Shown piece by piece: positions 4,525 through 53,952 of a stretch of 64,000 nt of DNA. The stretch lies in the NCBI GenBank assembly GCA_017822615.1, contig GCA_017822615.1_4530.1. One strand, given 5' to 3'. A program made the translations under genes and the position numbers. This stretch comes from a phage. The notes under the pieces are model-generated. The model saw only the letters and a list, made by a program, of their open reading frames with translations, did not search any database and was not told the origin of the DNA. Every line of letters starts with the position of its first letter. Positions within the stretch are counted from its first letter, which is position 1.

Positions 4525-4689
4525 CTATTCCCACAACATACAAATCGCAGCGACAAACATATTAGCAATAGCCGCACCAAGAACTATAAACATCGCCAGT
4601 TCAGAACAATATTCACCAACCAAAGGGGATACTATTGCACAGAGTAACCCCAATGTCAAACACAAGTTGATGATGAAGTTTAAAATCAT
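4525..4689 (-). CDS. small hydrophobic membrane protein (54 aa)
   Basis: not in ORF track (<60 aa); MILNFIINLCLTLGLLCAIVSPLVGEYCSELAMFIVLGAAIANMFVAAICMLWE, AAGGAG RBS, fills the gap between flanking genes. Confidence 0.4.
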   Translation of the reverse strand: MILNFIINLCLTLGLLCAIVSPLVGEYCSELAMFIVLGAAIANMFVAAICMLWE

Positions 4690-5128: not shown

Positions 5129-5493
5129 TACATACTCCCGTATTCTGGTTCAATATTATGTTTACGACAAATGGTATCCCAACGTTCATTACCAAAACTT
5201 CTTCCATGTAGAGCGTTAAATGCGAAATGCTCTGCCAACCACAATACTACATCATCAGGATCTGTGTCAAGAGGAATTCTAAACTCTCGATCATAACGCA
5301 TACGCAGAATAAAATCCTTATCATCTTCAAGGAGATACATGTGACTTTTAGCCCGTGATGCCAAATCAAAGAAAGGAGGCTCATCTTTCCAAACGTGACG
5401 CTCAACTTCAACACCATGATCTACTACCAGAGTAGCGATCACCTCTCTCATTTCTTTACTAAACATATTACCTCCATTAACCAATGAGTTCAA
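5128..5493 (-). CDS. hypothetical protein
   Basis: 121 aa ORF, start/stop overlap with neighbours. Confidence 0.4.
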   Translation of the reverse strand: MNSLVNGGNMFSKEMREVIATLVVDHGVEVERHVWKDEPPFFDLASRAKSHMYLLEDDKDFILRMRYDREFRIPLDTDPDDVVLWLAEHFAFNALHGRSFGNERWDTICRKHNIEPEYGSM

Positions 5494-5665
5494 CTGCTTT
5501 GCAGATGTAGATCCAAACCGGAGTGAGCATAAGAGCTATACCGAATGCACAATTCCACTTAATTCCCATTTCCTCTATTAGAGACATGATTAAGCCAACA
5601 GCACTAATAATCAGATAGATCCCTAAGAAAGCCATTGTGAAGAATTCAGACATATTTAGCTCCAA
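5477..5665 (-). CDS. small membrane protein
   Basis: 62 aa, two hydrophobic segments. Confidence 0.4.
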   Translation of the reverse strand: MELNMSEFFTMAFLGIYLIISAVGLIMSLIEEMGIKWNCAFGIALMLTPVWIYICKAVELIG

Positions 5666-15687: not shown

Positions 15688-17502
15688 ATGAAAGATTTGT
15701 ACCAAGATGTTTTTTCTTTTTTAGATCGCACTTCAGAAACATACACTAGAGAGAATGCAAACAAACCTTCCCACCTTGTTAACACGCACAGGGATCTCTT
15801 GGCGGGGATTTTAAGCAAACATATGGCAATGACACAGATACTGCCAAAAAACTTGTCAGAATGGCATACAGAAGGTTTTGGACATATTCACGACTTGGAT
15901 TATCTGCTCTCTCCTCTTACAAACTGTTGTCTTGTTAATTATCAAGATATGTTAGAGAATGGTTTTAAGATCGGTGCTGCACAGATAGAAAAACCAAAAT
16001 CTATTGGAGTAGCTACTACAGTGCTAACTCAAATCATCCAAGCTGTTGCCTCCAGTCAGTATGGAGGTCAGACGTGTGCGCACATTGATAAAGGTCTTAG
16101 TCCTTATGTTGAAGCCAGTTTCCTTAAAAACATGGAGATAACCAAACGTCGCTACGGTTGTTATGCAAGGAAAGAAGCCCTAGAAATGACCGAACAAGAT
16201 GTATATGACGCTATGCAAACTCTTTTGTATCAGGTTAACACTTTAATGAGTGTTAATGGACAATCTCCTTTTATTACAATCAGTATGGGTCTGGATACCT
16301 CTGTTTTTGGCAGAATGATCACAGCTAACTATCTTAAAGTGCATAGTAACGGTCTAGGTAAAGATCATGTAACGCCTGTATTCCCTAAAGTTATTTTCTT
16401 TTTACAAGAAGGTGTTAACATGAAACCTAGTGATCCTAACTACGACCTTAAGCAACAAGCTTTGGCATGTTGTGCTGATCGTATTTATCCAGATTTTATT
16501 TCTGTTCCTTTGAACAAAGAAGTTACGGGATCAGCAGATGGTACCGTTACGAGTATGGGTTGTCGTTCCTTTTTGTCGTACTATGCCACCGAACAAGGAG
16601 AAAAATATGATGGACGATTCAACCTTGGAGTAGTTTCTATCAACTTGCCTCTGATTGCTGCGGAAGCGAGAAGTAAAGGAGAATCTTTCACCGATCTTCT
16701 TAATAAACATATGGAGATAGCCTACGATGCTCACATGCTACGTGTAAACCGTATCAGACATACCAAAGCATCTGAAAACCCTATTCTTTTCATGGAAGGG
16801 GCTTTAGCGCGTTTAAATGCCAACGATGAAATTGGTGCTTTGTTTGAAGGTGGTTATGCTTCTATTAGTATTGGTTATGTAGGTCTTGCCGAAGCTTTGG
16901 AAATCCTTTATCCAGAGGAAAAAGATAAAAAGGAACTAGGTAAAAACATTCTGCAACATATGAAAGATGTGTGTGCTGTGTTTAAAGAACGATCTAAGTT
17001 GGCATTTAGTCTTTATGGAACTCCAGCAGAATCCTTGTGCTATAAATTTGCAACAGCTTTAAATGAAAAATATCCAGGTCTGGTAGAAAGAGACTATCTT
17101 ACTAATTCTTTTCATCAACCTGTATGGTTGGTAACAAATCCTTTTGAAAAATGGGATTATGAAGCAGGTTTTGCACAGATTAGCAATGGTGGTAACATAA
17201 GTTATGTCGAAACACCAAACTTAAAGAATAACTTAGAAGCTTTGGAGACTTTAGTAGACTACGCTTATGAACATATTCACTATTTTGGTATTAATCAGCC
17301 CGTGGATCAATGCTTTAAGTGTGGTTTTCATGGAGAATTTAAGGCAACGGCTAAAGGGTTTGAGTGTCCTAATTGTGGCAACCATGAAGAAGAAACTATT
17401 TCTGTAGTTAGACGTGTATCAGGGTATCTTTCTGCCCCTAATTCACGGCCTTATAACAAAGGTAAAATGCAGGAAGTTTTGCAAAGGGAGAAACATCTTT
17501 GA
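15688..17502 (+). CDS. nrdD: anaerobic ribonucleoside-triphosphate reductase
   Basis: 604 aa; C-terminal Zn ribbon CFKCG...CPNCG followed by glycyl-radical motif RRVSGYL. Confidence 0.85.
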   Translation: MKDLYQDVFSFLDRTSETYTRENANKPSHLVNTHRDLLAGILSKHMAMTQILPKNLSEWHTEGFGHIHDLDYLLSPLTNCCLVNYQDMLENGFKIGAAQIEKPKSIGVATTVLTQIIQAVASSQYGGQTCAHIDKGLSPYVEASFLKNMEITKRRYGCYARKEALEMTEQDVYDAMQTLLYQVNTLMSVNGQSPFITISMGLDTSVFGRMITANYLKVHSNGLGKDHVTPVFPKVIFFLQEGVNMKPSDPNYDLKQQALACCADRIYPDFISVPLNKEVTGSADGTVTSMGCRSFLSYYATEQGEKYDGRFNLGVVSINLPLIAAEARSKGESFTDLLNKHMEIAYDAHMLRVNRIRHTKASENPILFMEGALARLNANDEIGALFEGGYASISIGYVGLAEALEILYPEEKDKKELGKNILQHMKDVCAVFKERSKLAFSLYGTPAESLCYKFATALNEKYPGLVERDYLTNSFHQPVWLVTNPFEKWDYEAGFAQISNGGNISYVETPNLKNNLEALETLVDYAYEHIHYFGINQPVDQCFKCGFHGEFKATAKGFECPNCGNHEEETISVVRRVSGYLSAPNSRPYNKGKMQEVLQREKHL

Positions 17503-18796: not shown

Positions 18797-19453
18797 ATGA
18801 CAATAAAACATATTTCTTTTGATGTATGGAATACTCTTATTTCTGCCAATCAAAACTATGCAGATGCACGTACGCACACTATTGCTACATATGGTAGAAT
18901 GTCTGAACGTGCGGCAAAAGAAGCATATAAAGATGCCAAAGAAATTATGGATAATGCTGCACTAAATGGGTGTGCAGAAGGTGTAGCATATGCATGGAAT
19001 ATGTTGGGAAGAAAGATAGGTTTAACCCCTGTAGAATCTGCACAAATGCGTTTTGAGTGTGAGCAATGGTTTCTTAAATTTCCTCCACATATCGCTTTAG
19101 ATTTGCCAGTTTGTTTGCTATACTTGTCTGGTAAATATGATCTTAGTATTAAAAGCAATACTAATTTTATATCTGGGAATATTTTGCGTCGTGCTTGTAT
19201 GTTCGACAGTTGGAATTGTTTTGAATTTATGCATTTTTCAGACGAACATCTGTTATGTAAACCAGATCCTAGATTCTTTGTTAGGACCGCCACATATTCA
19301 AGCATTCCTTTGAAGGCTGAAGAGATTTTACATGTTGGGGACAGCGAAGAATTTGATGGTAAATGTGTTGACATAGGGATTAACTTCTGTCATATTAAGA
19401 ACCCTAACGATTTACTAGAGAAACTTAAAAGAGGAGAAATTGTAAATGCGTAA
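18797..19453 (+). CDS. HAD-superfamily hydrolase (phosphatase/nucleotidase-like)
   Basis: N-terminal FDVWNTL (HAD motif I DxDxT-like) and C-terminal HVGDSEEFD (motif IV). Confidence 0.5.
   Translation: MTIKHISFDVWNTLISANQNYADARTHTIATYGRMSERAAKEAYKDAKEIMDNAALNGCAEGVAYAWNMLGRKIGLTPVESAQMRFECEQWFLKFPPHIALDLPVCLLYLSGKYDLSIKSNTNFISGNILRRACMFDSWNCFEFMHFSDEHLLCKPDPRFFVRTATYSSIPLKAEEILHVGDSEEFDGKCVDIGINFCHIKNPNDLLEKLKRGEIVNA
19368..19396 (+). promoter_or_regulatory. sigma70-like promoter inside 3' end of HAD gene
   Basis: TTGACA (19368-19373) N17 CATATT. Confidence 0.3.
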
Positions 19454-20273
19454 TCAAACTCAAATTTTTGCAAATAAATTTGATGACCTGGAAACTGCTA
19501 CTTTTGATATCAAAGACTATTCAAAATTGAAATTTGGTAGTAACCAAGCTGCGCGTCGTATGGGTAAAGAATTGGCACTTCAGTTTTTTGCTCAAGTGGC
19601 AATGAAACATATTGGGGAACAATTTGTTATCATCCCTTCTCCTTATAACCATGTGCACAATGCTGCAACAATGATGACAGATCATTTTATTAATTACTTT
19701 AATATGTTGCAAGCACAATATGATCAAGGTCGTTCAGCAGAACTGGATATTATTCATCGTAAAGTTAGCTATATCAACGATTATGGTTTCTTGGATAAAG
19801 CTAGTCGTAAGAAACTTATTGATGGGGATACATTCTACTGCAACAAAGAATTCTGGGGTGATAAGAAGCTTGTGTTCATTGATGATGTAAATATCACCGG
19901 AACTCATGAAGACAAACTGATTGAGATTCTTGATGAAAATCAAGTTAAAAATGATGTTTACTTCTTGTATTTTGCAAAATATGAAGGTAATCAAGCAGAT
20001 ACTGAAGCTAAACTGAATTTTAACTACATCAATACACCAGAAGCGTTTGTTAAAATGATTAATGAAGAACGTGATGCACAGTGTCTTGTTCGTCCTATTA
20101 AGTATCTTATGGGCCAAAATCACGAAGACTTCAAAATCATTCTTAGCCAATTGCCACACTACTATGTAGAGCAACTTTTCTTCGGATGTTTGGGAGAAGG
20201 TTACAACCGAATTTCAAAGTATGCTGAAAACTTTGAATTCTTGGATCGTTACACAAAACAACACATTCTGTAA
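19446..20273 (+). CDS. phosphoribosyltransferase (PRTase)-like protein
   Basis: KKLVFIDDVNITGTHED matches the type I PRTase PRPP-binding loop pattern. Confidence 0.5.
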   Translation: MRNQTQIFANKFDDLETATFDIKDYSKLKFGSNQAARRMGKELALQFFAQVAMKHIGEQFVIIPSPYNHVHNAATMMTDHFINYFNMLQAQYDQGRSAELDIIHRKVSYINDYGFLDKASRKKLIDGDTFYCNKEFWGDKKLVFIDDVNITGTHEDKLIEILDENQVKNDVYFLYFAKYEGNQADTEAKLNFNYINTPEAFVKMINEERDAQCLVRPIKYLMGQNHEDFKIILSQLPHYYVEQLFFGCLGEGYNRISKYAENFEFLDRYTKQHIL

Positions 20274-20286
20274 TAAGGAGCTAAAA

Positions 20287-20760
20287 ATGCTTAAAATGAA
20301 AACAGGTAATCTTATTGATGCCGCTAAAGCAGGTGAAGTAACTGTTATTGCTCATTGTTGCAATTGTATGTGTAATATGGGAGCAGGAATTGCTCCGCAA
20401 ATTAAACGAGCATTCCCTTATGCATATGCGGCAGATTTAGACACAATGGCTGGTGATCAAAGTAAGTTAGGTTCTTTTAGTTTAGGGGTGCCAGACGAAC
20501 AATCAGACCCTTTGGTATATAATCTATACGGGCAATACCGTTACGGATACAATGCTAAAGGTCGTCAGTTGGACTATGATGCACTTTACGATGCACTAAT
20601 AGCTATGGCTAATGATTTGCTTCTCCGTGACCAAAAATGTAAGATCGGTTTACCTATGATTGGAGCGGGACATGCCGGAGGTAATTGGGCTATCATCCAA
20701 GTGATGATTGAAGAAACTTTAGTAAAAACAGGTCACGATGTGACTATTTATAAACTTTAA
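20287..20760 (+). CDS. macro-domain protein (ADP-ribose binding/hydrolase)
   Basis: start moved to ATG 20287 after AAGGAG; VIAHCCNCMCNMGAGIAPQI and GLPMIGAGHAGGNW match macro-domain glycine-rich loops. Confidence 0.65.
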   Translation: MLKMKTGNLIDAAKAGEVTVIAHCCNCMCNMGAGIAPQIKRAFPYAYAADLDTMAGDQSKLGSFSLGVPDEQSDPLVYNLYGQYRYGYNAKGRQLDYDALYDALIAMANDLLLRDQKCKIGLPMIGAGHAGGNWAIIQVMIEETLVKTGHDVTIYKL

Positions 20761-20772
20761 GAGGAGATTAGT

Positions 20773-20994
20773 ATGGGTGTTTTTGCAGGTATTGTTGCAG
20801 TGGTAAGCTTTTTTGTTATTGCTTTTATGCTTAGTTTGATTCCAGCTTGGTTACTGTTGCTGGCTTACAACTATGTTGCTGAAGTTATGGGTCATGCAGA
20901 TATCACTGTCCCAGTAACCTTCTGGACCGTGGTTTGTGTTTCGTTTATTTTGGCGGTATTACGAGGAATCTTTTCCTCTCATTCAACAAAATAA
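20773..20994 (+). CDS. small membrane protein
   Basis: 73 aa, two hydrophobic helices. Confidence 0.45.
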   Translation: MGVFAGIVAVVSFFVIAFMLSLIPAWLLLLAYNYVAEVMGHADITVPVTFWTVVCVSFILAVLRGIFSSHSTK

Positions 20995-20997
20995 GTG

Positions 20998-21025
20998 TTG
21001 ACATAGTTCTTAAAAAGAGTAAGAT
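20998..21025 (+). promoter_or_regulatory. sigma70-like promoter upstream of terC
   Basis: TTGACA (20998-21003) N16 TAAGAT (21020-21025); leader contains GCGGGGA-atagt-TCCCCGC hairpin at 21038-21056. Confidence 0.5.
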
Positions 21026-21073
21026 ATATCACATGAAGCGGGGAATAGTTCCCCGCAAAGAGAGGAGAAAAGA

Positions 21074-22048
21074 ATGCAACTCGGTTTCCCAATTATTGAT
21101 GTAGTTGTTTTAGTTGGTATTTTAGCATTGTCTATTGGTATCGATTTCTTTGGTCATAAAGAGAATAAAGAAATTGGAATTAAATCTGCTTTGCTTTGGT
21201 CTGTTTTTTGGATTGCTTTAGCTTTAGGGTATTACGCATTCATTTGGGTAGAACATGGTAAAGAGTTTGCCGCGCTTTTCCTAAGTGGCTATGTGTTGGA
21301 AAAGAGTCTTTCTGTAGATAACCTAATGGTGTTCATGGCAATTTTTGCAAGCTTTGGAATTAAGAGCACACATCTCCAACATAAGATTCTACTTTGGGGG
21401 ATTGCAGGAGCCATTGTCTTCCGAGGTATTTTTGTTGCAGCAGGGACCGCTTTGTTTAACCTTCATTGGTCGGTCCAAGTGTTGTTCGGTTTGATTGTAG
21501 CTTGGTCTGCCGTGGCTATCATCAAAGGTGGTGACGAAGAAGAGGATATTGATTACTCTAAACATTGGGCTGTTCGTTTAGTAGGTAAAGTTATGCCTGT
21601 GCACAATGCACCGGATGGTGAAAAGTTCATCACCATTAAGAATGGTATTAAATATGCAACTCCTGCTCTTCTTTGTGTGTTTGTTATTGAGCTTACAGAT
21701 ATTGTCTTCTCTTTTGATTCAGTTCCGGCTGTGATCGGTGTGACACAAGAACCTCTGCTAGTTTATTCTGCAATGCTGATGGCTGTTCTTGGTTTACGTG
21801 CACTTTTCTTTGTGTTAAGTGTAGCTGTGAAATATCTGGTTCACTTAGAGAAAGCTGTTGCTGTGGTTCTGGTGTTTGTTGGTGCTAAACTTATGTATCA
21901 CCCGTTCGGTGAAACACTTCATGCCAAGTGGTCATTCCTCCCGCATGATATTTCCCCTAACGTAAGTCTGATGATTGTTCTAGGCACATTATCTCTTGGT
22001 GTTATTGCAAGCTTTATCTTCCCTGAAAAAGAAGAAGCTACTGTTTAA
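21074..22048 (+). CDS. terC: TerC-family integral membrane protein
   Basis: 324 aa polytopic membrane protein with the TerC signature EKSLSVDNLMVF. Confidence 0.8.
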   Translation: MQLGFPIIDVVVLVGILALSIGIDFFGHKENKEIGIKSALLWSVFWIALALGYYAFIWVEHGKEFAALFLSGYVLEKSLSVDNLMVFMAIFASFGIKSTHLQHKILLWGIAGAIVFRGIFVAAGTALFNLHWSVQVLFGLIVAWSAVAIIKGGDEEEDIDYSKHWAVRLVGKVMPVHNAPDGEKFITIKNGIKYATPALLCVFVIELTDIVFSFDSVPAVIGVTQEPLLVYSAMLMAVLGLRALFFVLSVAVKYLVHLEKAVAVVLVFVGAKLMYHPFGETLHAKWSFLPHDISPNVSLMIVLGTLSLGVIASFIFPEKEEATV

Positions 22049-22054
22049 TAAATG

Positions 22055-22080
22055 AGCCTCCTTCGGGAGGCTATTTTATA
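22055..22080 (+). terminator. rho-independent terminator
   Basis: AGCCTCC-ttcg-GGAGGCT then ATTTTAT. Confidence 0.6.
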
Positions 22081-22090
22081 GGAGAGACTT

Positions 22091-22441
22091 ATGAGTAATT
22101 TTGATGAAATTCAAGAACTTGTTTGGGATTTATCTGGTGATGTGGATTACGTTTTAGATTATCTTTCAAAAGTTTACCCTGGGGTAAGCGTTATGATCGT
22201 GACCAAAGATCCAATTAATTTGCCTCCTAATGTGGTAGCTTGTTGTGGGAGTGGTTCAGGGGAAGTGGAGCCTGTATCCCGTTGGGAATTAACTAAAGCT
22301 GTTTCAAAACGAAACGGTGAAGTTTTGAATATTGATATCGAGCAAATATGGACTTCTCCAGCAGCTAAATGGAATGATCCGAATGGTTGGGACTTGTTCT
22401 TCTGGGATAATGAAACTGATGATGAGGTATTTTTAAAATGA
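22091..22441 (+). CDS. hypothetical protein
   Basis: 116 aa. Confidence 0.45.
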   Translation: MSNFDEIQELVWDLSGDVDYVLDYLSKVYPGVSVMIVTKDPINLPPNVVACCGSGSGEVEPVSRWELTKAVSKRNGEVLNIDIEQIWTSPAAKWNDPNGWDLFFWDNETDDEVFLK

Positions 22442-22683
22442 AATACTTGTTGGTTGTGTTTGAAAATATTTGTTTTGCAATAGGGTTGTTTGTTGTAATT
22501 TTTGTATTGACAAGCGTAATCAACGGCAGTAAAGTGAGTTTATACCGAGATGGAGAGCAACTTTATTGCTTCTCTGGAGATTTCAAACACAGATGTATTA
22601 ATAGCCAAAACGAGGAAAGCAAATATGAAAAAACTAGCCCTGATTTTAATTGGTTGTATCTTTTTAACAGCTTGCGAGGATGA
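22438..22683 (+). CDS. possible small membrane protein (overlaps lipoprotein gene start)
   Basis: 81 aa, hydrophobic N-terminus; contains an internal promoter-like TTGACA-N17-TAAAGT at 22507-22535. Confidence 0.3.
   Translation: MKYLLVVFENICFAIGLFVVIFVLTSVINGSKVSLYRDGEQLYCFSGDFKHRCINSQNEESKYEKTSPDFNWLYLFNSLRG
22507..22535 (+). promoter_or_regulatory. sigma70-like promoter upstream of lipoprotein gene
   Basis: TTGACA N17 TAAAGT. Confidence 0.35.
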
Positions 22684-23062
22684 AACAAATCCTGCACAAT
22701 ACCAACAACCTCCTCAACAATACGCTCAACAAGGATCTGACGGAGATACAACTATTATCAACAATGGTGGCGGTTCTAGTAGTAGCGGTGTTGGTGAGTT
22801 TGCTACAGGTATGTTGTTAGGGCATATGATGAGTGGCGGTAGTAATCGTAGCAGTGGGGATTATAACGATAACAGAACGATTATTAATAAGCATTATAAT
22901 ACACCTAAACCGAAAACTAATTTTTATAGTAAGCCTAAACAAGAGATAAAAACTTATGAAAAGCCGAGACAAACTTTTAAAACAAATAGTAGCTATACAA
23001 CTCGTAAATCTTACAATAGCCCTTTAAGTAAAAAGAGTTCATCTCGTAGCAAGCGACGTTAA
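22625..23062 (+). CDS. lipoprotein (Q/S/N-rich)
   Basis: start moved to ATG 22625; MKKLALILIGCIFLTAC lipobox; low-complexity C-terminus. Confidence 0.55.
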   Translation: MKKLALILIGCIFLTACEDETNPAQYQQPPQQYAQQGSDGDTTIINNGGGSSSSGVGEFATGMLLGHMMSGGSNRSSGDYNDNRTIINKHYNTPKPKTNFYSKPKQEIKTYEKPRQTFKTNSSYTTRKSYNSPLSKKSSSRSKRR

Positions 23063-23076
23063 TAAGGAGAAAAACA

Positions 23077-23670
23077 ATGACAATTTCTATTCGTACTTCC
23101 ATCGTAGGTGTTAAAAGGTTGCCTAATGCTTTGCAAATCACACGCGCTTTGAGGGATACATTCTCTGCTGTGGACGAGCATAAGATGCTTGATAATCTTT
23201 CAAATTGGCCCTATTTCCATTATTTTAAAAATGAAGATGACGAGTTTATAGACGCTGTTTCTTATGGTTATGATTTCGGTAAGGAGGTTTCTGCTGAAGA
23301 ATTTGTAGCTATGGTGTTCCCAAACGGTTTGCCTACTCGCAGTAAACGTAAAAAAGGACCAAAAAACAAGAAACGTGCTACTAATAAAGCTACCATTTTC
23401 TTTACTGATGGCACACAATATACGATTAAAGATTTTGAAGAGGTATCTTATACAGCAGGTGGGAATCTTTCTTTCTACACCATCAAAAAACAAAACTCTA
23501 CGTTCAGCCATGTTTCTAACATGATTGAAATGTTAGTAGAAGATATTGAAAGCGTAGCTGTGTTAGGTATGCATAAAAGCTTTTTAATTACAAATATTTC
23601 AGATTTCAGTGCACGTTTATCTGGTCCTGATTTTGAAACCACGACCACGCATTTCACTTTTAAGGTGTAA
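23077..23670 (+). CDS. hypothetical protein
   Basis: 197 aa, basic patch SKRKKGPKNKKR. Confidence 0.45.
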   Translation: MTISIRTSIVGVKRLPNALQITRALRDTFSAVDEHKMLDNLSNWPYFHYFKNEDDEFIDAVSYGYDFGKEVSAEEFVAMVFPNGLPTRSKRKKGPKNKKRATNKATIFFTDGTQYTIKDFEEVSYTAGGNLSFYTIKKQNSTFSHVSNMIEMLVEDIESVAVLGMHKSFLITNISDFSARLSGPDFETTTTHFTFKV

Positions 23671-23673
23671 GTT

Positions 23674-24264
23674 ATGTATACCGAGAGAGACTTGCAACTC
23701 TTGTGGTGGGAAGTGATGCAGGAAATAAAAGAAGATTTTCCTGTTTACTACAACATGTTACGTGAAGCAGGATATAAAGCTTGTGTTAGAAACAAAGTGA
23801 ATAACTCTTTCGGTTGGTGCAACTACCGAGATAAAATTGTTGTTGTAAATTGGCACTTGCATAAGAACTCTACAAGAGATATGATCGTGGATACAATGAA
23901 GCACGAAATTGCTCATGCTATTGATGGTTGTATGGGTAAGTTTAGTAGACACGGTGCTCATTGGCAAAAACTGGCAGCAGAGTTAGGGGCTAATCCTAAA
24001 GCCACTTCCAAAGAGCCGTTGAACCACGAATATAAATATGTTCTTGTTCTGGTAGATAGGTTTGCGACAAGATGTGTTAGAGGTTATAATCGTAAACCTA
24101 ATCGCATGTACCCAGGTAAGCAACCTAATATGTGGTTGAAATCAGATAAAGAAGGGACCGAAGGAAAATTATGGTTGTATAAATGGGACGATTGGGTTAA
24201 AGTAGCTAAAGAGTACGGTGTTTCACCATATATAAGAGATGCAGAAGAGGAGAATGAAGAATGA
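23674..24264 (+). CDS. SprT-like zinc metallopeptidase
   Basis: HExxH motif in MKHEIAHAIDGC plus downstream His/Cys. Confidence 0.5.
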   Translation: MYTERDLQLLWWEVMQEIKEDFPVYYNMLREAGYKACVRNKVNNSFGWCNYRDKIVVVNWHLHKNSTRDMIVDTMKHEIAHAIDGCMGKFSRHGAHWQKLAAELGANPKATSKEPLNHEYKYVLVLVDRFATRCVRGYNRKPNRMYPGKQPNMWLKSDKEGTEGKLWLYKWDDWVKVAKEYGVSPYIRDAEEENEE

Positions 24265-25373
24265 CAAGTCCATTTTTAAAAGCAGCTACTGGCGGTCAGA
24301 AGAAGCCTGAAATGAGCGTATTTGCTGCAACAACAGATGCAAGTAAATCTGTATTCGCTCCAAGCGTGTTAGATGCCAGTCCTGTTTATGCACCAGCGGC
24401 ACCGCAAGAAGTTCCAGTTTTGCCTTCTATGACCCGACAAGAGATCGAAGAGATTGGGGCAGAGGCAGGAACAACCTTGCGTTCCTTGAATGCCGAGGTA
24501 TTAAAACATCAACGTAGTAATCAAGGCGATCAGATGAGTGAACGACTCACAGCTTTGATTAAACAGGCAAAACAACTTGATCCAAACTCTATTAAACAAA
24601 GCAAGGGTATTACTAAACTCATTAAAAAAGTTATGGGTATGAAAGAAGATCTGTTTGGGGAGTTTGATAATGTTAATAACCGTATTGAAGAGTTGGTAAA
24701 AAACCTTCAAATGGATATTCGCAAAGAAGAAGATTCCTTGGTATATCTTGAAAAGCTACATCAAGCTATTGGACAATATGCTGCAAGTTTGAACCGAGAT
24801 ATGCAGCTTCTAACAGCAACCTATGAAAAAGAAGAACAAGCTTTGGCTGCTCTTCCAGAAGATGCAGTAGAACAGCGACAAGTGATCCGAGATACTTTGG
24901 ATCTTCTGGAGATTCGTATTGCAGATTTAAAAGCATTGCGCCTACTGTGTGTCCAAATGGGACCGCGTGTACAAGGTATGCAAAAAGTTTCTGCAAGCTT
25001 AATGCGATCTGCGCGTAACATAGTAAATAATGTTATTCCTGCTTACTCTGCTAACTTCTCAATGTATATCGAGAGCTTACGTCAAATGAAAGCAGCAGAG
25101 ACGCAGAATAACGTTCTTGATGAATTTAACCTGGCAATTAAACTGGGTAGCGATCTTGCCACACAGAATCAGATCGAAGCAGCAGCACTGGCTAACCGTC
25201 AAGTGTTGGATATTGAAACTCTGCGTCACGATCAGGAAAACTTGGTTAAGATGTTGGAAGAAACTAACCGCATCAATACGGAAGCCCGTGCTGCTCGTGT
25301 TGATTATATTAATGAAGTTCAATCTTTGGAAGACGGGATGGTAGCTGCTGTGAAACGAGGGCTTGGTAAATGA
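24261..25373 (+). CDS. TelA-like (toxic anion resistance family) coiled-coil protein
   Basis: 370 aa largely helical; size, composition and ter-locus context suggest TelA; assignment by recollection only. Confidence 0.4.
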   Translation: MTSPFLKAATGGQKKPEMSVFAATTDASKSVFAPSVLDASPVYAPAAPQEVPVLPSMTRQEIEEIGAEAGTTLRSLNAEVLKHQRSNQGDQMSERLTALIKQAKQLDPNSIKQSKGITKLIKKVMGMKEDLFGEFDNVNNRIEELVKNLQMDIRKEEDSLVYLEKLHQAIGQYAASLNRDMQLLTATYEKEEQALAALPEDAVEQRQVIRDTLDLLEIRIADLKALRLLCVQMGPRVQGMQKVSASLMRSARNIVNNVIPAYSANFSMYIESLRQMKAAETQNNVLDEFNLAIKLGSDLATQNQIEAAALANRQVLDIETLRHDQENLVKMLEETNRINTEARAARVDYINEVQSLEDGMVAAVKRGLGK

Positions 25374-25570
25374 GAATCCGTATCTATATAATTGATGAGG
25401 ACATTGGTGTCCGTTATGATGACGAAAAACGATTCGCGCCGATGGGAGGCATATATCCCCCAAGTGTTCTAGCAGTTTGTCGTGATTGTTATATTTATGA
25501 AGGTTGTCGTAACTTCCGTAAATTCGAACTCCTTGCAGATATTGACTTCAATGAGGAGGAGGAGGAGTAA
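25370..25570 (+). CDS. hypothetical protein
   Basis: 66 aa, acidic C-terminus. Confidence 0.4.
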   Translation: MRIRIYIIDEDIGVRYDDEKRFAPMGGIYPPSVLAVCRDCYIYEGCRNFRKFELLADIDFNEEEEE

Positions 25571-25743
25571 TGAAAATATTACGAGTGAATATTGAAACTG
25601 CTTGGTGTGGATGCAATGAGGTTGTGGATATCGAAATTGAAGATGATATGTCTCAAGAGGATATAGAAGATCTTGCACACGAAACCTTTCAGGACTATTG
25701 TAATTACGGGTTCCATATTTTAGAGGAGGAAGAGGATGTTTAA
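25570..25743 (+). CDS. small hypothetical protein (57 aa)
   Basis: not in track; TAATG junction upstream and ATG overlap downstream. Confidence 0.35.
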   Translation: MKILRVNIETAWCGCNEVVDIEIEDDMSQEDIEDLAHETFQDYCNYGFHILEEEEDV

Positions 25744-25939
25744 CTACGATAACGACCCTAATATTATCCAGTTAACCCGACAAGAACTGATCACAATCAT
25801 TGAAGATGCTTTTATTGATGGCTGGAATACACAAGACAATGATTGGGGTGGACCCGAAGCTTTTCTGGAACATCATAAAGCTTATGGAGAATTTTGTGAA
25901 ACCACTGTAGCTCTTGATAATCTGAAGGAGGGTTTGTAA
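25736..25939 (+). CDS. hypothetical protein
   Basis: 67 aa. Confidence 0.4.
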   Translation: MFNYDNDPNIIQLTRQELITIIEDAFIDGWNTQDNDWGGPEAFLEHHKAYGEFCETTVALDNLKEGL

Positions 25940-26502
25940 TGGGTTGTTTTAGCTTTTTGTGCAAAGAATCGGGCAAAGCTGCCCTTTCTACTTCTTTCGA
26001 CGGATCACCTTGTTATCTCTTTCTTTTGAAGGACGGTGTTGTTATTGAAGAGATGTATGGCAACTATGATAGTTATGGTTGTGTTTTCTCTGGAAAGGAG
26101 GATGAAAATGGCGTTCGTGAACGGTTCGAATGGGCTATGGATTGGGGTAAGGTTTGTGATTTAATGCATTCCTCGAATCCAAGGGATGGTATCGCTATGG
26201 TGCTGGAAGAGTATTTTACAGGTGAAATCCCTACAGAACAATCTGACGGAGATCCTAACCAAGGTTGGGGTGATGGCGAAGAAGATCCAGATTGTTTTTT
26301 CAGCACAGAAAAGAATAAGTTTAAACGTGTTGACAACCCTTATCACAAAGTGCATAATACTCTCATTGAAACAGAAGATGACAAGATGGAAATTGAAGAA
26401 GATGATCCTCTTGTAACACTTCCTATAAGTGAGTTACAAAAGATCACTAAGGAAGCTTACGATTTGGGCTTCAAAATTGGTAGAGGAGGTATGCGTGTTT
26501 AG
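25939..26502 (+). CDS. acidic hypothetical protein
   Basis: 187 aa. Confidence 0.45.
   Translation: MGCFSFLCKESGKAALSTSFDGSPCYLFLLKDGVVIEEMYGNYDSYGCVFSGKEDENGVRERFEWAMDWGKVCDLMHSSNPRDGIAMVLEEYFTGEIPTEQSDGDPNQGWGDGEEDPDCFFSTEKNKFKRVDNPYHKVHNTLIETEDDKMEIEEDDPLVTLPISELQKITKEAYDLGFKIGRGGMRV
26330..26358 (+). promoter_or_regulatory. sigma70-like promoter (internal to preceding gene)
   Basis: TTGACA (26330-26335) N17 CATAAT (26353-26358). Confidence 0.4.
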
Positions 26503-26773
26503 ATTCAATATTCAAGAAGAAAAAAGTCAGGATTTACCTATTGCTTTCGAAGATCTTGACGTAGGGGCCACATTCATGTATTATGATGCCTATGAAGACG
26601 CAGGGTTGGATACCTACCGTAACTTGGTGTTCATTAAAAATTCCACAAACAGTGCGATTTGTATTAATGGATCACTAGCACAACGAGGCTATACTCATTG
26701 CATCCCACCAGATACAAATATGGTGGAAGTAGATTTAGAAGTTACCAATATTACACTTAAGAAGGAGAAATAA
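26495..26773 (+). CDS. small protein, paralog A of a duplicated family
   Basis: GTG start after GAGGAGG; shares FxIxEEK...DLDVGxTFxY...GLD...EVxLxVTxITLK with 27795..28064. Confidence 0.45.
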   Translation: MFRFNIQEEKSQDLPIAFEDLDVGATFMYYDAYEDAGLDTYRNLVFIKNSTNSAICINGSLAQRGYTHCIPPDTNMVEVDLEVTNITLKKEK

Positions 26774-26774
26774 T

Positions 26775-27569
26775 ATGTCCGAGAAAATCAGCCTGAAAAA
26801 ACGTCAAGAAAACCTTGCTTTCTCTCTGAAAAAGAATAAGAACCTGAATGAAGGTAAGATTGTTCTTCGTGTAGCATGTGCTCTAGATATTTCTGGTAGT
26901 ATGCATGGTCTATATTCTAGTGGGGTAGTGAGTGATTTTGTAGGTAAACTGCTTCCTTTTGGTATGCTGTTCGACGATAATCAACAAATTGATATGTGGG
27001 CCTTCAATACGAGTTCCCAAGAGCTTACTCCAGCAACAGCAGACGTTTACGATGACTATGTTGGTAAATGTATGCGTAATGTTCGTATCGGAGGTGGAAC
27101 AAATTACGCCCCTGTAATGGCAGATATCTACGATGAGTATTTTGGCACTGTTACCAAATATATTACCACTAAACAAGTGGTACAAGAGGAGGCTCCAAAG
27201 AAAGGCTTCTTTAATCGTCTGCTTGGTAAAACTGAAACAGTATCTGTAGAGCGTGAAAAGGTTGTAGCTGTGTCTGAACCAGGTGCTGACGTTACCCCTG
27301 GTGTTGTATTCTTCCAGACGGATGGTGAGAATGGTGATCCTAGTGCTGTTCGTCGTCTTATTGAAGAGAATAAGAATAAACCTATTTATTGGTTCATGGT
27401 TGGCGTTGGTAATGAGAAGTTTGGCTTCCTGAAAGAACTGGCAAATGCTTATGATAATGTTGGTTTTATTGGCATTAAAGATTTAGACTTGACAGATTCA
27501 GAGCTTTATGACAAACTCTTATCTGAAGAGTTCGGAGAGTGGGTTGTTAAAGTAGGTGCTAAAAAATGA
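26775..27569 (+). CDS. vWA-domain protein (TerY-like)
   Basis: MIDAS motif DISGSM with downstream GGTNYAP; N-terminus KISLKK...FSLKK resembles TerD N-terminus. Confidence 0.6.
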   Translation: MSEKISLKKRQENLAFSLKKNKNLNEGKIVLRVACALDISGSMHGLYSSGVVSDFVGKLLPFGMLFDDNQQIDMWAFNTSSQELTPATADVYDDYVGKCMRNVRIGGGTNYAPVMADIYDEYFGTVTKYITTKQVVQEEAPKKGFFNRLLGKTETVSVEREKVVAVSEPGADVTPGVVFFQTDGENGDPSAVRRLIEENKNKPIYWFMVGVGNEKFGFLKELANAYDNVGFIGIKDLDLTDSELYDKLLSEEFGEWVVKVGAKK

Positions 27570-27814
27570 TCGACGAGCTTGCCTCTCAAGTCATAGAAAA
27601 TTATTGGCGCGAGAGAGAAGCTTTCATTATGCGCAGTCTCAAAGAGTATTTCATTGGGACTGTGCGAATGGAAGATATTGTAAGTAGAGTAGAGATTCAT
27701 GTATGGCCTGATTATGAAGAATGGGTTGACAAAGAAAATGAAAATGCTATAATTCTTCGTATATACAAACCGGAGATAACATTAGGAGGAAGAAGTGTTA
27801 AACTTCGAAATTGA
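27566..27814 (+). CDS. hypothetical protein
   Basis: 82 aa, ATGA overlap. Confidence 0.4.
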   Translation: MIDELASQVIENYWREREAFIMRSLKEYFIGTVRMEDIVSRVEIHVWPDYEEWVDKENENAIILRIYKPEITLGGRSVKLRN

Positions 27815-28064
27815 TGAGCAAAAAGTAAATAAACGATGCCTTACCATTAAAGATTTGGATGTAGGAGATACTTTCGTCTATGAAAATGCATTTGACGAAA
27901 ATGGTTTAGACCTTAGTGAAATCATTGTTTATTTAAAAGTAGATGATGGGGAAAATGATTATTCTGCTGTAGAACTAAACCATCATGCACAATTAGTATC
28001 AATCCAAAACACATCTAAGCTTTTGGAAGTAGAATTGACTGTAACTGGTATTACACTTAAATAA
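27795..28064 (+). CDS. small protein, paralog B of a duplicated family
   Basis: GTG start after AGGAGG; see paralog A. Confidence 0.45.
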   Translation: MLNFEIDEQKVNKRCLTIKDLDVGDTFVYENAFDENGLDLSEIIVYLKVDDGENDYSAVELNHHAQLVSIQNTSKLLEVELTVTGITLK

Positions 28065-28079
28065 TAGAGGAGACAAAAG

Positions 28080-28682
28080 ATGACTGATAAAATTTCCCTG
28101 AAAAAAGGTTCTAGCGAAAAAATTTCCCTGAAGAAAGTTGCTCCGGCTCTGAAAGAACTGCGTCTGGAATTCTCTTGGAAATCTGATTCTAAACTGGATC
28201 TGGATGTAAGTGCACTGGTTTGTCGTCACAATGCCGCTGGCAATCCTGAAATGCTGTCTGCACGTCATCTGGTTTGCTATGCTAACAAGTTTGATCCTGA
28301 ACGTTCTACCTTCGCTGGTGACGATGTTCGTGATGGAACTGGCAGCATGGAGCAGATTGATATTACTCTGGCTAAAATCTCTCCTGATGCACAAGAGATT
28401 GCCTTTGTTCTGACCATTGAGGATGATACAGGTCTGAAACGTTTTGGTCATGCTTCTGAAGGTATGCTTAAAATCTTCGACTCCGAGCGCAATGTGGAAA
28501 TTCTGGATTTTGACTTCCTGGCTCCTGAAGTAGCTGGCAACACAATCTGCCACGTGGCTTCCCTGGTTCGTGAAGATGGAGAATGGAAGCTGAAAGCATA
28601 TGGTGTAGGTAAAGCTGGTCTGGATATTTGCGATGTGGTGATGGCCTTCGGTGGTAAAAAAGAATGGTATGAATGTCCATAA
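28080..28682 (+). CDS. terD: TerD-family protein
   Basis: 200 aa aligns end to end with canonical TerD: N-terminal ISLKKG..ISLKK, LDLDVSALV, GDDVRDGTG, DGEWKLKAYGVGKAGL. Confidence 0.85.
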   Translation: MTDKISLKKGSSEKISLKKVAPALKELRLEFSWKSDSKLDLDVSALVCRHNAAGNPEMLSARHLVCYANKFDPERSTFAGDDVRDGTGSMEQIDITLAKISPDAQEIAFVLTIEDDTGLKRFGHASEGMLKIFDSERNVEILDFDFLAPEVAGNTICHVASLVREDGEWKLKAYGVGKAGLDICDVVMAFGGKKEWYECP

Positions 28683-28698
28683 TAATTAACAAATGATT

Positions 28699-28718
28699 TT
28701 GAGGGGGAGAAGTCCCCC
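28699..28718 (+). terminator. GC-rich hairpin after terD (weak terminator)
   Basis: GAGGGGGA-gaag-TCCCCCTC; only TT following. Confidence 0.35.
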
Positions 28719-28781
28719 TCTTGCAATAAAGCCTCTATCGTGTTATACTAGAAGTTCGTTAACTTAAAAAGGAGGCAAAAT

Positions 28782-29588
28782 TTGCTGATAAAAAACTTTG
28801 TAACAGTTGCGTTACTATCCTTAACTGCTTTTACATTTACACCTGTTGTGGCGAAAGCCGAAGCTGCAAACGTAAAAACCGCTAAAGTAGTTCACAAATG
28901 TACAAAGCAATATAATGATAAAATTCTATTAGCTTGTGCAATTTACGCAGAAGGTCGCGGTCTGGGTAAAAAAGGAATGAATGCCGTTGGGAATGTGGTA
29001 ATCAACAGAAGAAATGATGCCTACTTCCCTAACACAGTCAAGGGAGTCTTGTTCCAGAAAGGGCAATTCTCATATGCGAAAACTTTTAACGTGACAGAGA
29101 AAGATAAGTGGCAGGAAGCAAAAGCAATAGCGGAGCGTTTACTTTATTTAGAGAAACATTTTCCTGAATTGCGGTCTGTTTTAGATGTTACTAAAGGTGC
29201 TCTATACTTCAAGAAACGGAATATAAGGACACACTGGGAGCGTGATATGCGTCTTGTTTATCGAGATAAAGTGCATGGTTTCTATCTACCAAAGGGAGTT
29301 AAAATGCAAGAAGATAATACTGTTGTTGTAGCAAGTTACCTGGTTGTCGGTCTTACCGAAGAGGACGTATACTACACCCGTAAACATTTGGAAGCATACG
29401 CTACTTTGTTTATGGAAGATGAAAAGGATGTAGATAAATATAGCATTGATATGATCAACGACAGTATTTATCCTTGTATGGTTCTTAAAGTAGATGCTGT
29501 GCTGTGGGAGCGTTTTGCAAGGACTCATGATGCTGTAGAATGCTCCGCAGTAATGTCTCAAAACAACATTTTAGGGGAGATTCACTGA
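28782..29588 (+). CDS. cell-wall hydrolase (SleB/CwlJ-like) with N-terminal signal/SAR segment
   Basis: TTG start after AAGGAGG; hydrophobic N-terminus then LLACAIYAEGRG...VGNVVINRR...QKGQFSY matching the SleB-type hydrolase core. Confidence 0.5.
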   Translation: MLIKNFVTVALLSLTAFTFTPVVAKAEAANVKTAKVVHKCTKQYNDKILLACAIYAEGRGLGKKGMNAVGNVVINRRNDAYFPNTVKGVLFQKGQFSYAKTFNVTEKDKWQEAKAIAERLLYLEKHFPELRSVLDVTKGALYFKKRNIRTHWERDMRLVYRDKVHGFYLPKGVKMQEDNTVVVASYLVVGLTEEDVYYTRKHLEAYATLFMEDEKDVDKYSIDMINDSIYPCMVLKVDAVLWERFARTHDAVECSAVMSQNNILGEIH

Positions 29589-29818
29589 TGGGAGAAGTCA
29601 TTGAAGTAAATTTTCGCACTAAACAAAAAGTGCAAAAATATGTTGTTATTAAAAACATTTGCGTTGTCTGCTTCAATACTGTAATATACGATTCACGACG
29701 CGGAGAAAACGAAAATGAACCTTACATTGAAATTTCTAAGAACAAAGGTCAATGTATTTGTAAGAACTGTGCAGTAGCTATTAAGGAGGTTGTAAATGAA
29801 AACGCTTGGGACCAATGA
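29588..29818 (+). CDS. small Zn-finger-like protein
   Basis: start moved to ATG 29588 (MGEVIEV...); CVVC...CKNC pairs. Confidence 0.4.
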   Translation: MGEVIEVNFRTKQKVQKYVVIKNICVVCFNTVIYDSRRGENENEPYIEISKNKGQCICKNCAVAIKEVVNENAWDQ

Positions 29819-32203: not shown

Positions 32204-33147
32204 ATGGGACAAATAATTCTTGACAATCGTAACGGAATCAATTATAGTGTCTGCGATTTCCATAGGGTAGTGCTGCCTTACTCAAGGCAGTTCTCTTCAC
32301 AACCTAAACACAACGTTTTCGTTTTTAACGGAGTGCCAACAAAAGGTAAAGAGGGCTTTTAGCCCTTAAAAACCTGGGCTTTAAAATGGTTATGGATTTG
32401 GATGACTCTTTAGTTATTCCAAAAGGACACATGTTAGAAGGTATTTTTGAATCAGGTATTCGTGAACATTTAAAATGGTTTTTAGAGCACAGTGATCTTG
32501 TTACAACTACGACACCTGCCTTGCAAGTTGAACTTTCACAATACAATGATAATGTGCACATAATCCCTAATGGACTTCCTTACGATGAAGGTCAATTTGT
32601 GTTGACCCGTGATCGCTACTCCAAAACTCCATTAGTCTGGGCTGGAAGTGAAACACATAAACAAGATTTGGCTATCTTGCCCGATTTTGGTAAAGATCTT
32701 ACAATATGTGGTTTTCGTAGGGATTCTGAAGTTTTAAGTAGTCGTGAATGGTCTTTAATCAGGGAAAATGTAGCACCAACTTGTGTTTATGAAGGTGTAA
32801 GACCATATGCCAACTACATGGAATCTTACGATGGTCATCAAATCAGTCTTGCACCATTGATCGATAACGTGTTTAATAATGCAAAAAGCAATCTTAAAAT
32901 TCTTGAGGCAGGTGCTAAGGGTTTACCTTTAATCTGCTCTCCTCGTGAGAATTATCATACACAAGAGTTTAAAGATTTGTTATTCTTTGCTGAAACACCT
33001 TCCGAGTGGAAAGATATTACGGAATACTTATTAAGTGCTCCCGATGTTTGCATGGAGAAAGGATTAGCATTAGCTAAGTATGTCAGGACTCATTATCACA
33101 TTGATGTGTTGAATGAGCGTCGTAGACTTTTATTTGAGGAGCTATAA
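32204..33147 (+). pseudogene. glycosyltransferase paralog 2, interrupted by an apparent -1 frameshift in a TTTT run
   Basis: 52-codon N-terminal ORF (32204-32362) aligns with paralog 1 N-terminus then hits TAG; C-terminal ORF from 32386 continues the alignment in the -1 frame; junction at GGC-TTTT-AG (32354-32362). Confidence 0.45.
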
Positions 33148-41730: not shown

Positions 41731-41768
41731 ATAAAAGAAAAGGGAACCTTTGCGGGTTCCCTTTTTAT
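41731..41768. terminator. bidirectional terminator at convergent junction
   Basis: GGGAACC-tttgcg-GGTTCCC flanked by A-run upstream and TTTTTATT downstream; between stop of ssb (+) and stop of 41768..44443 (-). Confidence 0.65.
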
Positions 41769-52222: not shown

Positions 52223-53710
52223 TTACACTCCATACTCGTAAGAAATGTTATCAAGGTCAAAAGAAGGGACAACATTATAAGCAGGAACTATATTATTCTC
52301 TGTATATTTACTGTCATCCTCAGTATTAAGTTTAACATAAACACGAAGAGAAGTCAAGCGTCCAAAAGCAAGTGCTGCATAAATAACACCTTTGATTTGA
52401 TCGTTCGTTACTGAAGAACCTAATTCAAAGTAAGCTTGCAGGTTTTGTAAAGCTTCTACGATGTTTTGTTTTTCTGTTCCACTTAAAGTTGTTCCGTTGA
52501 CAGTTTGATAAACAAGTTTTACAGAATACATAGCAGAAGCACCAGGAGAGAAGCGAATAATTTCTTGTCCTCCATCTTCTGTTGTAACTGTTATGTTAGT
52601 TGTTCCGTGTGTCAAAGTGTTGATTGGTTTGGTTTTATAAATAACATTTGCAATTTCTTCTGCACTGCCACCATAAACTATAGTCTGGAAAGTCATAGCT
52701 GGAGCGTGTTCTTGATCATGTAACGTAGGGTTATCATAAATCTTCACCTTAGTAACACCATCTGTAAGCAACAGAGCTTTCACAATAGCTGCTCGTGTCC
52801 CTGCGTTAGCTTCATCAACGTTGTCATTGAAACGAGAGCGGAATTCTGCGTCTGTCTCAACATCTCGACCAGGAGAAAATGAATAGAAGTTACCACTGTC
52901 AAGATAACCTGTAAAGGTAGAAGATATCCCTGTAATAGACTCCACACCAACAGGATTGTATCCTTTCTCTGCTGCAACTACCGGAATCTCACTCCATTTG
53001 GTTCCAACCGGAACACTAGCATAAAATTTAATAGGAGTTACCAGCCCCACTGGAGTATCACTGGTTAAAGAAGTAAAACCAATTGATAAGTTACCTGAAT
53101 CAGAAAATACAAGACTACGATCAGCTTCTGTTAAATTTGCCTTGATAAAAGTTTCAAGATCGGTTATAAATGTAGAAGAACCAGGTGCAAGTGTTTTACT
53201 GTTTAGTCCTCCATCGACCGCACTTTGTGCATAAAAAGTAATATTTGGAACACCTGTAGCAGTTGCATTAGCACGAGAGATTTGATAAGCTGCAATCTTA
53301 GCATTCAACATAGTTGGTGTGCTAACATAGTAGTTCATATCACTATCAGAGTTGAAATAAATATCTGTGCCTAGCTCATAAGTCCAAGCTGCTTTGTTAT
53401 TACTCTTAACATATGCATAACCTGTACTTGCTGCTGCACCTGCTCGATAGAAACCGCGTTTAGAAAAGATTTCATCAAGATAAATACCTTCTGCACCATC
53501 CAGTGTTTGAGTATTATAAACACCTTGCATACCTTCCCACAATGTGTAATCTGTGTATGCAATTATTCTAAACAGTTGTCCGATCACAGTATCTTCCGAA
53601 GTGGCTGCATCTGCACCAAATGTGTTTTTTACTGCTGTCATGTAGTTGTTTAAAACATCGTCAAAAGTCGGGATTACAAATCCCGCATCTGTCAAACCAT
53701 ATTCGTCCAT
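52223..53710 (-). CDS. baseplate wedge protein (gpJ-like)
   Basis: 495 aa; N-terminal PTFDDVLNNY...GQLFRIIAYTDYTLWEGMQGVYN pattern resembles Baseplate_J family. Confidence 0.45.
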   Translation of the reverse strand: MDEYGLTDAGFVIPTFDDVLNNYMTAVKNTFGADAATSEDTVIGQLFRIIAYTDYTLWEGMQGVYNTQTLDGAEGIYLDEIFSKRGFYRAGAAASTGYAYVKSNNKAAWTYELGTDIYFNSDSDMNYYVSTPTMLNAKIAAYQISRANATATGVPNITFYAQSAVDGGLNSKTLAPGSSTFITDLETFIKANLTEADRSLVFSDSGNLSIGFTSLTSDTPVGLVTPIKFYASVPVGTKWSEIPVVAAEKGYNPVGVESITGISSTFTGYLDSGNFYSFSPGRDVETDAEFRSRFNDNVDEANAGTRAAIVKALLLTDGVTKVKIYDNPTLHDQEHAPAMTFQTIVYGGSAEEIANVIYKTKPINTLTHGTTNITVTTEDGGQEIIRFSPGASAMYSVKLVYQTVNGTTLSGTEKQNIVEALQNLQAYFELGSSVTNDQIKGVIYAALAFGRLTSLRVYVKLNTEDDSKYTENNIVPAYNVVPSFDLDNISYEYGV

Positions 53711-53952
53711 TAGTCATCCTCTTTGGTAGATTGTGATCTGCCCCAGCGTAAATCAATAAGATTTTTCATGAGGCGAGAAGGAGTTATCATGAAAACAAAA
53801 GCCCAACCCATCCATTCAGGAATTTCTTTTTCTATTCCTAAAAAGATAAACATGCCTGTCATAACCGACATGCCTACAGCGTTCCAGACTTTCGTAGAAC
53901 TGACTTTATTATCAGGATATGTACAGAACATACCTATTAAAAATTTTCTCAT
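53710..53952 (-). CDS. small membrane protein
   Basis: 80 aa, two TM segments. Confidence 0.4.
   Translation of the reverse strand: MRKFLIGMFCTYPDNKVSSTKVWNAVGMSVMTGMFIFLGIEKEIPEWMGWAFVFMITPSRLMKNLIDLRWGRSQSTKEDD

Follow-up and report, generated by a model that had tools for sequence, protein, structure and literature searches.

A SleB-like hydrolase gene with a predicted signal peptide in a Phapecoctavirus, most likely fused to its downstream neighbour by a homopolymer error

The TTG-initiated, 268-aa open reading frame (ORF) that a program-made ORF list placed at exactly 28782..29588 (+) of a 64,000-nt stretch of phage DNA (the whole stretch analysed, hereafter the window) was best explained as two genes. 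The first would encode a Sec-exported, accessory periplasmic hydrolase, and its fusion to the second would most likely be an error. We give this explanation a probability of about 70%. Judged by comparison with related genomes, the locus consists of two Phapecoctavirus genes that appear to have been joined in the window by the loss of a single G. The 268-aa ORF should not be mistaken for a novel lysin with two domains, being most probably a homopolymer artefact, and at least one other gene of the window is broken likewise.

Megablast searches assigned the window to Phapecoctavirus, the phAPEC8-like 150-kb myoviruses of E. coli. Identity to ESCO25, AV125, and ESCO13 was 99.8% over 2.6 kb, and identity to nieznany was 98.9% in the aligned block. 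In ESCO13, phAPEC8_ev052, nieznany, ESCO25, and VEcB of the sister genus, the annotation of the region shows two genes, one encoding a hydrolase of 169–173 aa and the other a separate protein of 92–94 aa. The 173-aa hydrolase of ESCO13 ends with YLPKGS, and the next gene (MQEDNTV) begins one base past the stop codon. In the alignment, the sole difference at the gene junction was a run of GGG in the window where the relatives had GGGG (Table 1). Of 65 phage records, not one matched an 81-nt probe carrying the GGG version at ≥99% (all of them aligned to it over 82 nt with one gap), whereas 63 matched the 82-nt GGGG version at that level.

Protein comparisons gave the same division. Residues 31–181 of the ORF matched phrog_938 ("endolysin") in PHROGs, and residues 177–268 were a full-length match (1–92 of 92, E = 4e-57) to the stand-alone family phrog_16257. 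In a collection of 5.8 billion proteins, all 20 hydrolase homologue clusters were 144–181 aa long, and the full-length homologues of the C-terminal part were all stand-alone proteins of 92–94 aa with no Hydrolase_2 domain. No fused homologue was present among 36 homologous protein clusters, and an exact look-up across 153 billion gene positions did not return the 268-aa fusion protein. Exact-pattern scans of IMG/VR matched neither the GGG nor the GGGG version and hence did not discriminate between them. An earlier reading of the window, made from the sequence alone, had taken the whole ORF as one gene. This was not upheld: the last 96 codons are foreign to the hydrolase, and the 3' third belongs to another gene. 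The other elements of that reading, namely the ORF, its TTG start, its hydrophobic N-terminus (MLIKNFVTVALLSLTAFTFTPVVAKA, identical to the segment then quoted), and its SleB-like core, were all real according to the ORF list, Pfam, and hydropathy. The hydrolase gene is conserved far beyond chance (98–99% in 65 phage records and 58–79% in further clusters), and it is already known, being annotated in more than 60 phage genomes.

Three one-base homopolymer contractions that nieznany and ESCO25 lack were found in the window, at 29294 (G4 to G3), 32357 (T5 to T4), and 41762 (T6 to T5). None of 63 records shared the contraction at 32357, and none of 53 that at 41762; both were private to the window. 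The contraction at 32357 splits the fourth glycosyltransferase gene (32204..33147) into ORFs of 52 and 253 aa, compared to 314 aa in nieznany, and in all, two of the three private contractions break conserved genes. Because all three private changes are homopolymer contractions and two of them break conserved genes, under-calling of homopolymers in the source assembly would be the most likely cause of the fusion, at about two-thirds versus about one-third for a real private mutation. The window otherwise shows few indels relative to nieznany and ESCO25, which counts for a real mutation. The contraction at 41762 is located between the convergent blocks for replication and tail fibres, in a site that carries a terminator annotation in phAPEC8. 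A G4 run shared by the window (near 31960) and nieznany is G5 in ESCO25, whose third glycosyltransferase gene is annotated as truncated; homopolymer frameshifts therefore occur in other deposited genomes of the genus too.

It is unlikely that the 268-aa fusion is biologically meaningful, whether as a genuine fusion of this isolate or through a programmed +1 frameshift at the G-run of the relatives. A +1 slip at GGG-G within the GGGG sequence would yield exactly the fused protein of the window, and the low number of indels in the assembly also speaks for a meaningful fusion. However, none of the 65 relatives carries the fusion, no fused protein was seen in the 36 clusters, and the downstream 94-aa gene retains its own Shine-Dalgarno sequence and ATG. 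Of the two other window-unique contractions, one breaks a conserved gene, which likewise argues against it. In VEcB, the two genes are parted by TAA and 10 nt with no G-run, and there is thus no conserved slippery site. Programmed +1 frameshifting at the G-run was rejected on this arrangement in VEcB together with the lack of any fused homologue.

The downstream 94-aa protein is acidic (pI 4.4), has no transmembrane (TM) segment, and matched no Pfam or NCBIfam family. Its AlphaFold model (pLDDT 78) had a beta-alpha-beta-beta-alpha fold, for which Foldseek found no match in the PDB below E = 0.27. Homologues were confined to Stephanstirmvirinae-like phages. The 94-aa gene is followed by a gene for a 76-aa protein (29588..29818; phrog_15360) with two CxxC pairs that looks zinc-ribbon-like by eye; the ORF list extends this protein upstream to 29540.

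Upstream of the hydrolase gene, a GC-rich hairpin overlaps a promoter-like site, and a strong Shine-Dalgarno sequence precedes the TTG start (Table 1). The arm lengths of the hairpin differ among relatives, and the length of its G/C runs varies relative to nieznany and ESCO25. The hairpin has no T-tail, and a terminator scan did not call it as an intrinsic terminator. The Justusliebigvirus VEcB has the same hairpin-plus-promoter layout, with an equivalent site TTGCAA-17-TACAAT preceded by the extended TG, and its hydrolase gene also has AGGAGG and a TTG start. Phapecoctavirus and Justusliebigvirus hence share, 5' of the hydrolase, a GC-rich hairpin that overlaps a near-consensus sigma-70 promoter with an extended -10. 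More GC-rich hairpins occur in the window near 32350, 41750, and 46555.

Table 1 Features of the hydrolase locus and its downstream gene in the window.
Feature	Position	Strand	Basis or remark
GC-rich hairpin GAGGGGGAGAAGTCCCCCTC	28703..28722	+	After the TerD gene; last two bases overlap the -35 hexamer of the promoter-like site
Sigma-70-type promoter-like site, TTGCAA-17 nt-TATACT, extended -10 TG	28721..28749	+	From sequence; putative function
Shine-Dalgarno sequence AAGGAGG	28769..28775	+	6 nt 5' of the TTG start
Predicted Sec signal peptide, aa 1-26 or 1-28	28782..28865	+	Hydropathy and homologue alignment
Predicted mature hydrolase, ~17 kDa, pI ~9.9	28866..29302	+	Frame of the relatives used after 29296
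Glu57 codon GAA, motif AIYAEGRG, putative catalytic residue	28950..28952	+	Invariance and SleB alignment
Hydrolase_2 domain, aa 63-168	28968-29285	+	Pfam
G-run of 3 (4 in every relative)	29294..29296	+	Contraction creating the fused 268-aa ORF
Native hydrolase stop TAA, missing G restored	29300-29302	+	ESCO13 translation ends LPKGS
Separate downstream gene, 94 aa	29304..29588	+	Own GGAG 6 nt 5' of ATG; phrog_16257

The only Pfam domain in the ORF was Hydrolase_2 (PF07486), which scored 62.7 bits (E = 5.3e-17; gathering threshold, 27) and spanned positions 4–100 of the 100-position profile. Sequence matches in the PDB were limited to the SleB catalytic domains 4F55 and 4FET (E ~1e-7). The AlphaFold model of the hydrolase, built with 18 sequences, was poor (pLDDT 59); with this poor model, 4FET and 4F55 were the only plausible Foldseek hits, with a probability of 1.00, marginal E values of 2e-3 to 1e-2, and TM-scores of 0.53–0.57 by target length. 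Glu57 was invariant in 18 homologues and aligned with the Glu within YGESRGE in 4F55 and 4FET, reported in the SleB structure papers as the catalytic residue of SleB. With a domain match above threshold, a conserved Glu57, and matches to SleB catalytic domains, the name "SleB-like cell-wall hydrolase" given in the sequence-only reading was well chosen.

The hydrolase is not SleB proper, as judged from its sequence: it scored below the cut-off of the spore_SleB equivalog TIGR02869, and Pfam found no N-terminal PG_binding_1 domain in it. SleB itself prefers the muramic-delta-lactam cortex, and E. coli has no such cortex, so substrate recognition must differ from that of SleB. Muralytic activity and bond specificity of the phage hydrolase are predicted from homology. 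For Hydrolase_2 proteins from phages of Gram-negative hosts, the searchable literature yielded genome descriptions but neither biochemical nor genetic studies.

The N-terminus of the hydrolase has the n-h-c layout with small residues at -3 and -1 that is known from Lys44-type signal-peptide endolysins, as seen by inspection and from conservation. It consists of the n-region MLIK, the h-region NFVTVALLSLTAFTFT, an invariant Pro21, and the c-region VVAKAEA. Hydropathy in a 19-residue Kyte-Doolittle window peaked at 1.94 at aa 6, and cleavage is predicted between AKA and EA or between AEA and AN, that is, after Ala26 or Ala28. The h-region ALLSLTAFTFTP was conserved across homologues of 56–98% identity. 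The residues of the c-region varied among homologues, and a small-x-small motif before (A/V/K)NVK was always kept. A cleavable Sec signal peptide is more likely than a signal-anchor-release (SAR) segment, because the small-x-small motif is kept while nearby residues vary and Pro21 is invariant. The h-region contains no Gly, and 8 of its 20 residues are Thr, Ala, or Ser; this richness counts toward a SAR-type anchor, but the small-x-small motif and Pro21 favour cleavage. Secretion dependence was the best-supported part of the sequence-only reading, and of the two options raised there, a signal-peptide-like or a SAR-like segment, the conservation of the c-region and of Pro21 favours the former. 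Cys40 and Cys52 are near-invariant in the homologues and would fit a periplasmic disulfide.

Similar N-termini occur in homologues from other phages. Hydrolase_2 homologues were found by tblastn in 1223 phage records, mostly of large virulent phages of Gram-negative hosts, and the members seen in rV5-like phages, T5-like phages, and Pakpunavirus bear a signal peptide or are membrane-anchored. Signal peptides stand at the N-termini of the rV5 and T5-like homologues too, and a membrane anchor at that of the JG004 homologue. For the Certrevirus homologue CB7_83, both a signal peptide and toxicity on expression in E. coli were reported (PMC7344957). Papers have already remarked on the signal peptide and on the lack of an adjacent holin.

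The hydrolase gene lies within a long plus-strand block of nucleotide-metabolism, Ter-type, glycosyltransferase, and replication genes, and the structural genes are on the opposite strand, more than 12 kb away. Its neighbours encode TerD, the soluble 94-aa protein, the 76-aa Cys-rich (CxxC) protein, and glycosyltransferases. A Ter-type stress-response cluster (~19000–28700) lies immediately upstream and includes a phosphoribosyltransferase, a phosphatase, a 73-aa protein with two TM segments (20773..20994), a TerC-like membrane protein, a TelA-like protein, a vWA-TerF-like protein (26775..27569), and TerD (28080..28682). Elsewhere in the compared segment, an insertion of ~780 bp with gp168 (15790–16570 of the nieznany sequence) splits the gene for the large subunit of the anaerobic ribonucleotide reductase in nieznany. 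The insertion is probably a mobile element, and it is lacking in the window (16560–16570) and in ESCO25.

No small membrane protein was encoded within ~5.7 kb on either side of the hydrolase gene according to the ORF list and a TM scan, and no TM protein adjoins it that might serve as a pinholin. With soluble neighbours and a distance of more than 5.7 kb to the closest small TM ORF, the earlier remark that there is no obvious adjacent holin was confirmed. The only small, holin-like TM ORFs of the window were at 4525..4689, 5477..5665, 20773..20994, 22438..22683, and 53710..53952. Those at 4525..4689 (-), 5477..5665 (-), and 53710..53952 (-) encode proteins of 54, 62, and 80 aa with one or two predicted TM segments, and none of these three is near a muralytic gene. 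Holin candidates of class II with 61 and 81 residues have been described in the related phage BME3 (PMC12210895). The hydrolase does not have the features of a canonical holin-dependent endolysin: its N-terminus is hydrophobic (1.94 on the Kyte-Doolittle scale) and carries an AXA motif, and no holin is adjacent.

The whole genome of nieznany encodes further putative lysis proteins. The 166-aa gp046 matched T4 lysozyme over residues 7–165 (E ~3e-48) and has no signal peptide, and an i-spanin/o-spanin (Rz/Rz1) pair adjoins the terminase gene. The lysozyme and spanins were absent from the 64-kb window and were seen only in nieznany, where neither of the two lytic enzymes, the hydrolase or the T4-type lysozyme, is paired with a holin. 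An endolysin/holin pair elsewhere in the genome had been named in advance as evidence against the lysis role of the hydrolase; the enzyme half of this, together with spanins, was found in nieznany, but the paired holin was not. Published genomes agree with such a layout. Two lytic proteins, with PF00959 and PF07486, were described in a Phapecoctavirus genome paper (PMC10793346). In BME3, the lysozyme and the SleB-like hydrolase are in the replication module with no TM proteins beside them, the holin candidates are distant, and the spanins are separate (PMC12210895). T5-like phages have their SleB-like gene well away from the holin-linked M15 endolysin (PMC11180984; PMC3326045). The lysis cassette organisation, which had seemed unclear in the window, corresponds to the scattered placement already known for this phage group.

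From these comparisons, we infer the following for the first gene, including how its product is exported and cleaved, which bond it cuts, when it is expressed, and what it does in lysis. With the missing G restored, it would run from its TTG to the native TAA (Table 1) and encode a 173-aa pre-protein. Translation would start from a weak TTG behind a strong Shine-Dalgarno sequence, and transcription probably from its own host-type promoter. The product would most likely be exported by Sec, with signal peptidase I cutting it behind Ala26 or Ala28, which would give a basic, soluble periplasmic enzyme of ~17 kDa with a SleB-type Hydrolase_2 fold. Using Glu57, the enzyme may cut the glycan strands of peptidoglycan, probably as a lytic transglycosylase like SleB. 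It would provide an accessory, second muralytic activity that needs no holin, beside a T4-type cytoplasmic lysozyme and Rz/Rz1 spanins encoded elsewhere. The second gene would encode an unrelated, acidic, cytoplasmic protein of 94 aa. The accessory role is proposed because nieznany, at 98.9% identity, encodes the T4-type lysozyme and spanins elsewhere, and the hydrolase is probably not the sole endolysin.

One alternative is that the hydrolase is the principal endolysin, exported without a holin in the manner of Lys44 or of SAR endolysins and inactive until a distant holin or pinholin depolarises the membrane. RefSeq and PHROGs label the gene "endolysin", the protein has a predicted N-terminal export signal, and small proteins with two TM segments are encoded elsewhere in the window. 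The toxic Certrevirus homologue, whose gene overlaps that of a holin candidate with two TM segments, and Cronobacter CR3_087, said to be implicated in lysis (PMC7344957), also point in this direction. However, the T4-type soluble lysozyme of nieznany is full-length, and T5-like phages carry a hydrolase homologue alongside their holin-linked M15 endolysin. Because of this lysozyme and the T5 precedent, a role as principal endolysin is less likely than an accessory one, and we consider it doubtful. There is also no adjacent TM protein, the downstream partner being soluble and acidic; the conserved AXA motif, the invariant Pro, and the h-region with no Gly favour cleavage over a SAR anchor; and the gene is in a replication-module block behind a sigma-70-like promoter.

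That same location suggests another alternative, in which the hydrolase is not a lysis protein but an early or middle periplasmic factor that remodels peptidoglycan, common to T5-like, rV5-like, and phAPEC8-like phages. Such remodelling might change the sacculus for cell enlargement, serve envelope takeover, or exclude superinfecting phages. Genes for nucleotide metabolism, Ter-type proteins, glycosyltransferases, and replication surround the hydrolase gene, a host-type promoter of its own and a weak TTG/GTG start are kept across genera, and the 1223 phage records with homologues include phages that use other proteins as endolysins. However, the timing of expression in this alternative is read from the promoter consensus alone, and the lysis genes of T4 and T5 are also located outside late modules, which makes gene position weak evidence. 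The reported toxicity of the Certrevirus homologue fits a lytic role equally well. We therefore hold remodelling to be possible at best. An extension of this idea is equally tentative: the signal-peptide Hydrolase_2 proteins of phAPEC8-, rV5-, and T5-like phages may be not endolysins but a conserved class of weakly translated, host-promoter-driven remodellers of peptidoglycan that act before lysis, and in Stephanstirmvirinae the acidic 94-aa protein may be a dedicated cytoplasmic partner or inhibitor of the basic enzyme.

A virion-associated lysin for DNA injection, which the sequence-only reading had also offered and for which a muralytic domain in a large myovirus would speak, is very improbable: the predicted cleavable export signal is incompatible with virion assembly in the cytoplasm, the gene lies in a nucleotide-metabolism and replication block with a host-type promoter, far from the structural module and on the opposite strand, and the protein is small with no structural domain.

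The accessory hydrolase remains our preferred explanation. The routine label "endolysin" for this Hydrolase_2 family is putative. These phages carry a T4-type lysozyme as well, so either enzyme may be the one that brings about lysis.

Among known systems, the closest is the putative SleB cell-wall hydrolase, or "endolysin", of phAPEC8 and other Phapecoctavirus phages (ESCO13 YP_009786650.1, nieznany YP_009986313.1), which is the same gene at 98–99% protein identity. These relatives and the window share the TTG start, TerD upstream, and the 94-aa gene and glycosyltransferases downstream, but in the window one G of the terminal G4 run is gone and the ORF reads into the next gene. The same general build, with a signal peptide, a single Hydrolase_2 domain, a length of ~150–175 aa, and no adjacent holin, is found in Vequintavirinae (the rV5 SleB hydrolase, Certrevirus CB7_83, and Cronobacter CR3_087) and in T5-like phages (AKFV33 ORF81 and Stitch gp86). 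These rV5-like and T5-like phages also carry another endolysin, and their hydrolases are only ~35% identical to that of the window. The downstream partner differs as well, being rIIA in rV5, a holin candidate with two TM segments in Certrevirus, and a soluble acidic 94-aa protein in the window.

The Bacillus spore-cortex lytic transglycosylase SleB (4F55, 4FET; TIGR02869) has the catalytic-domain fold and the Glu motif in common with the phage hydrolase, whereas the latter has no N-terminal peptidoglycan-binding domain and reached 52.5 bits, far under the equivalog cut-off of 236.5 bits. Lys44 of the Oenococcus phage fOg44 and the SAR endolysins P1 Lyz and R21 of phage 21 are exported by Sec with no holin, and a holin or pinholin gene accompanies theirs in a lysis cassette. 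Their export is covered by references cited in PMC10282059. The likeness to the phage hydrolase lies in the holin-independent Sec export of a muralytic enzyme, predicted here for the hydrolase. The hydrolase differs from them in its catalytic family and in the position of its gene outside any holin or pinholin cassette, and its conserved AXA motif favours the Lys44 type over the SAR type.
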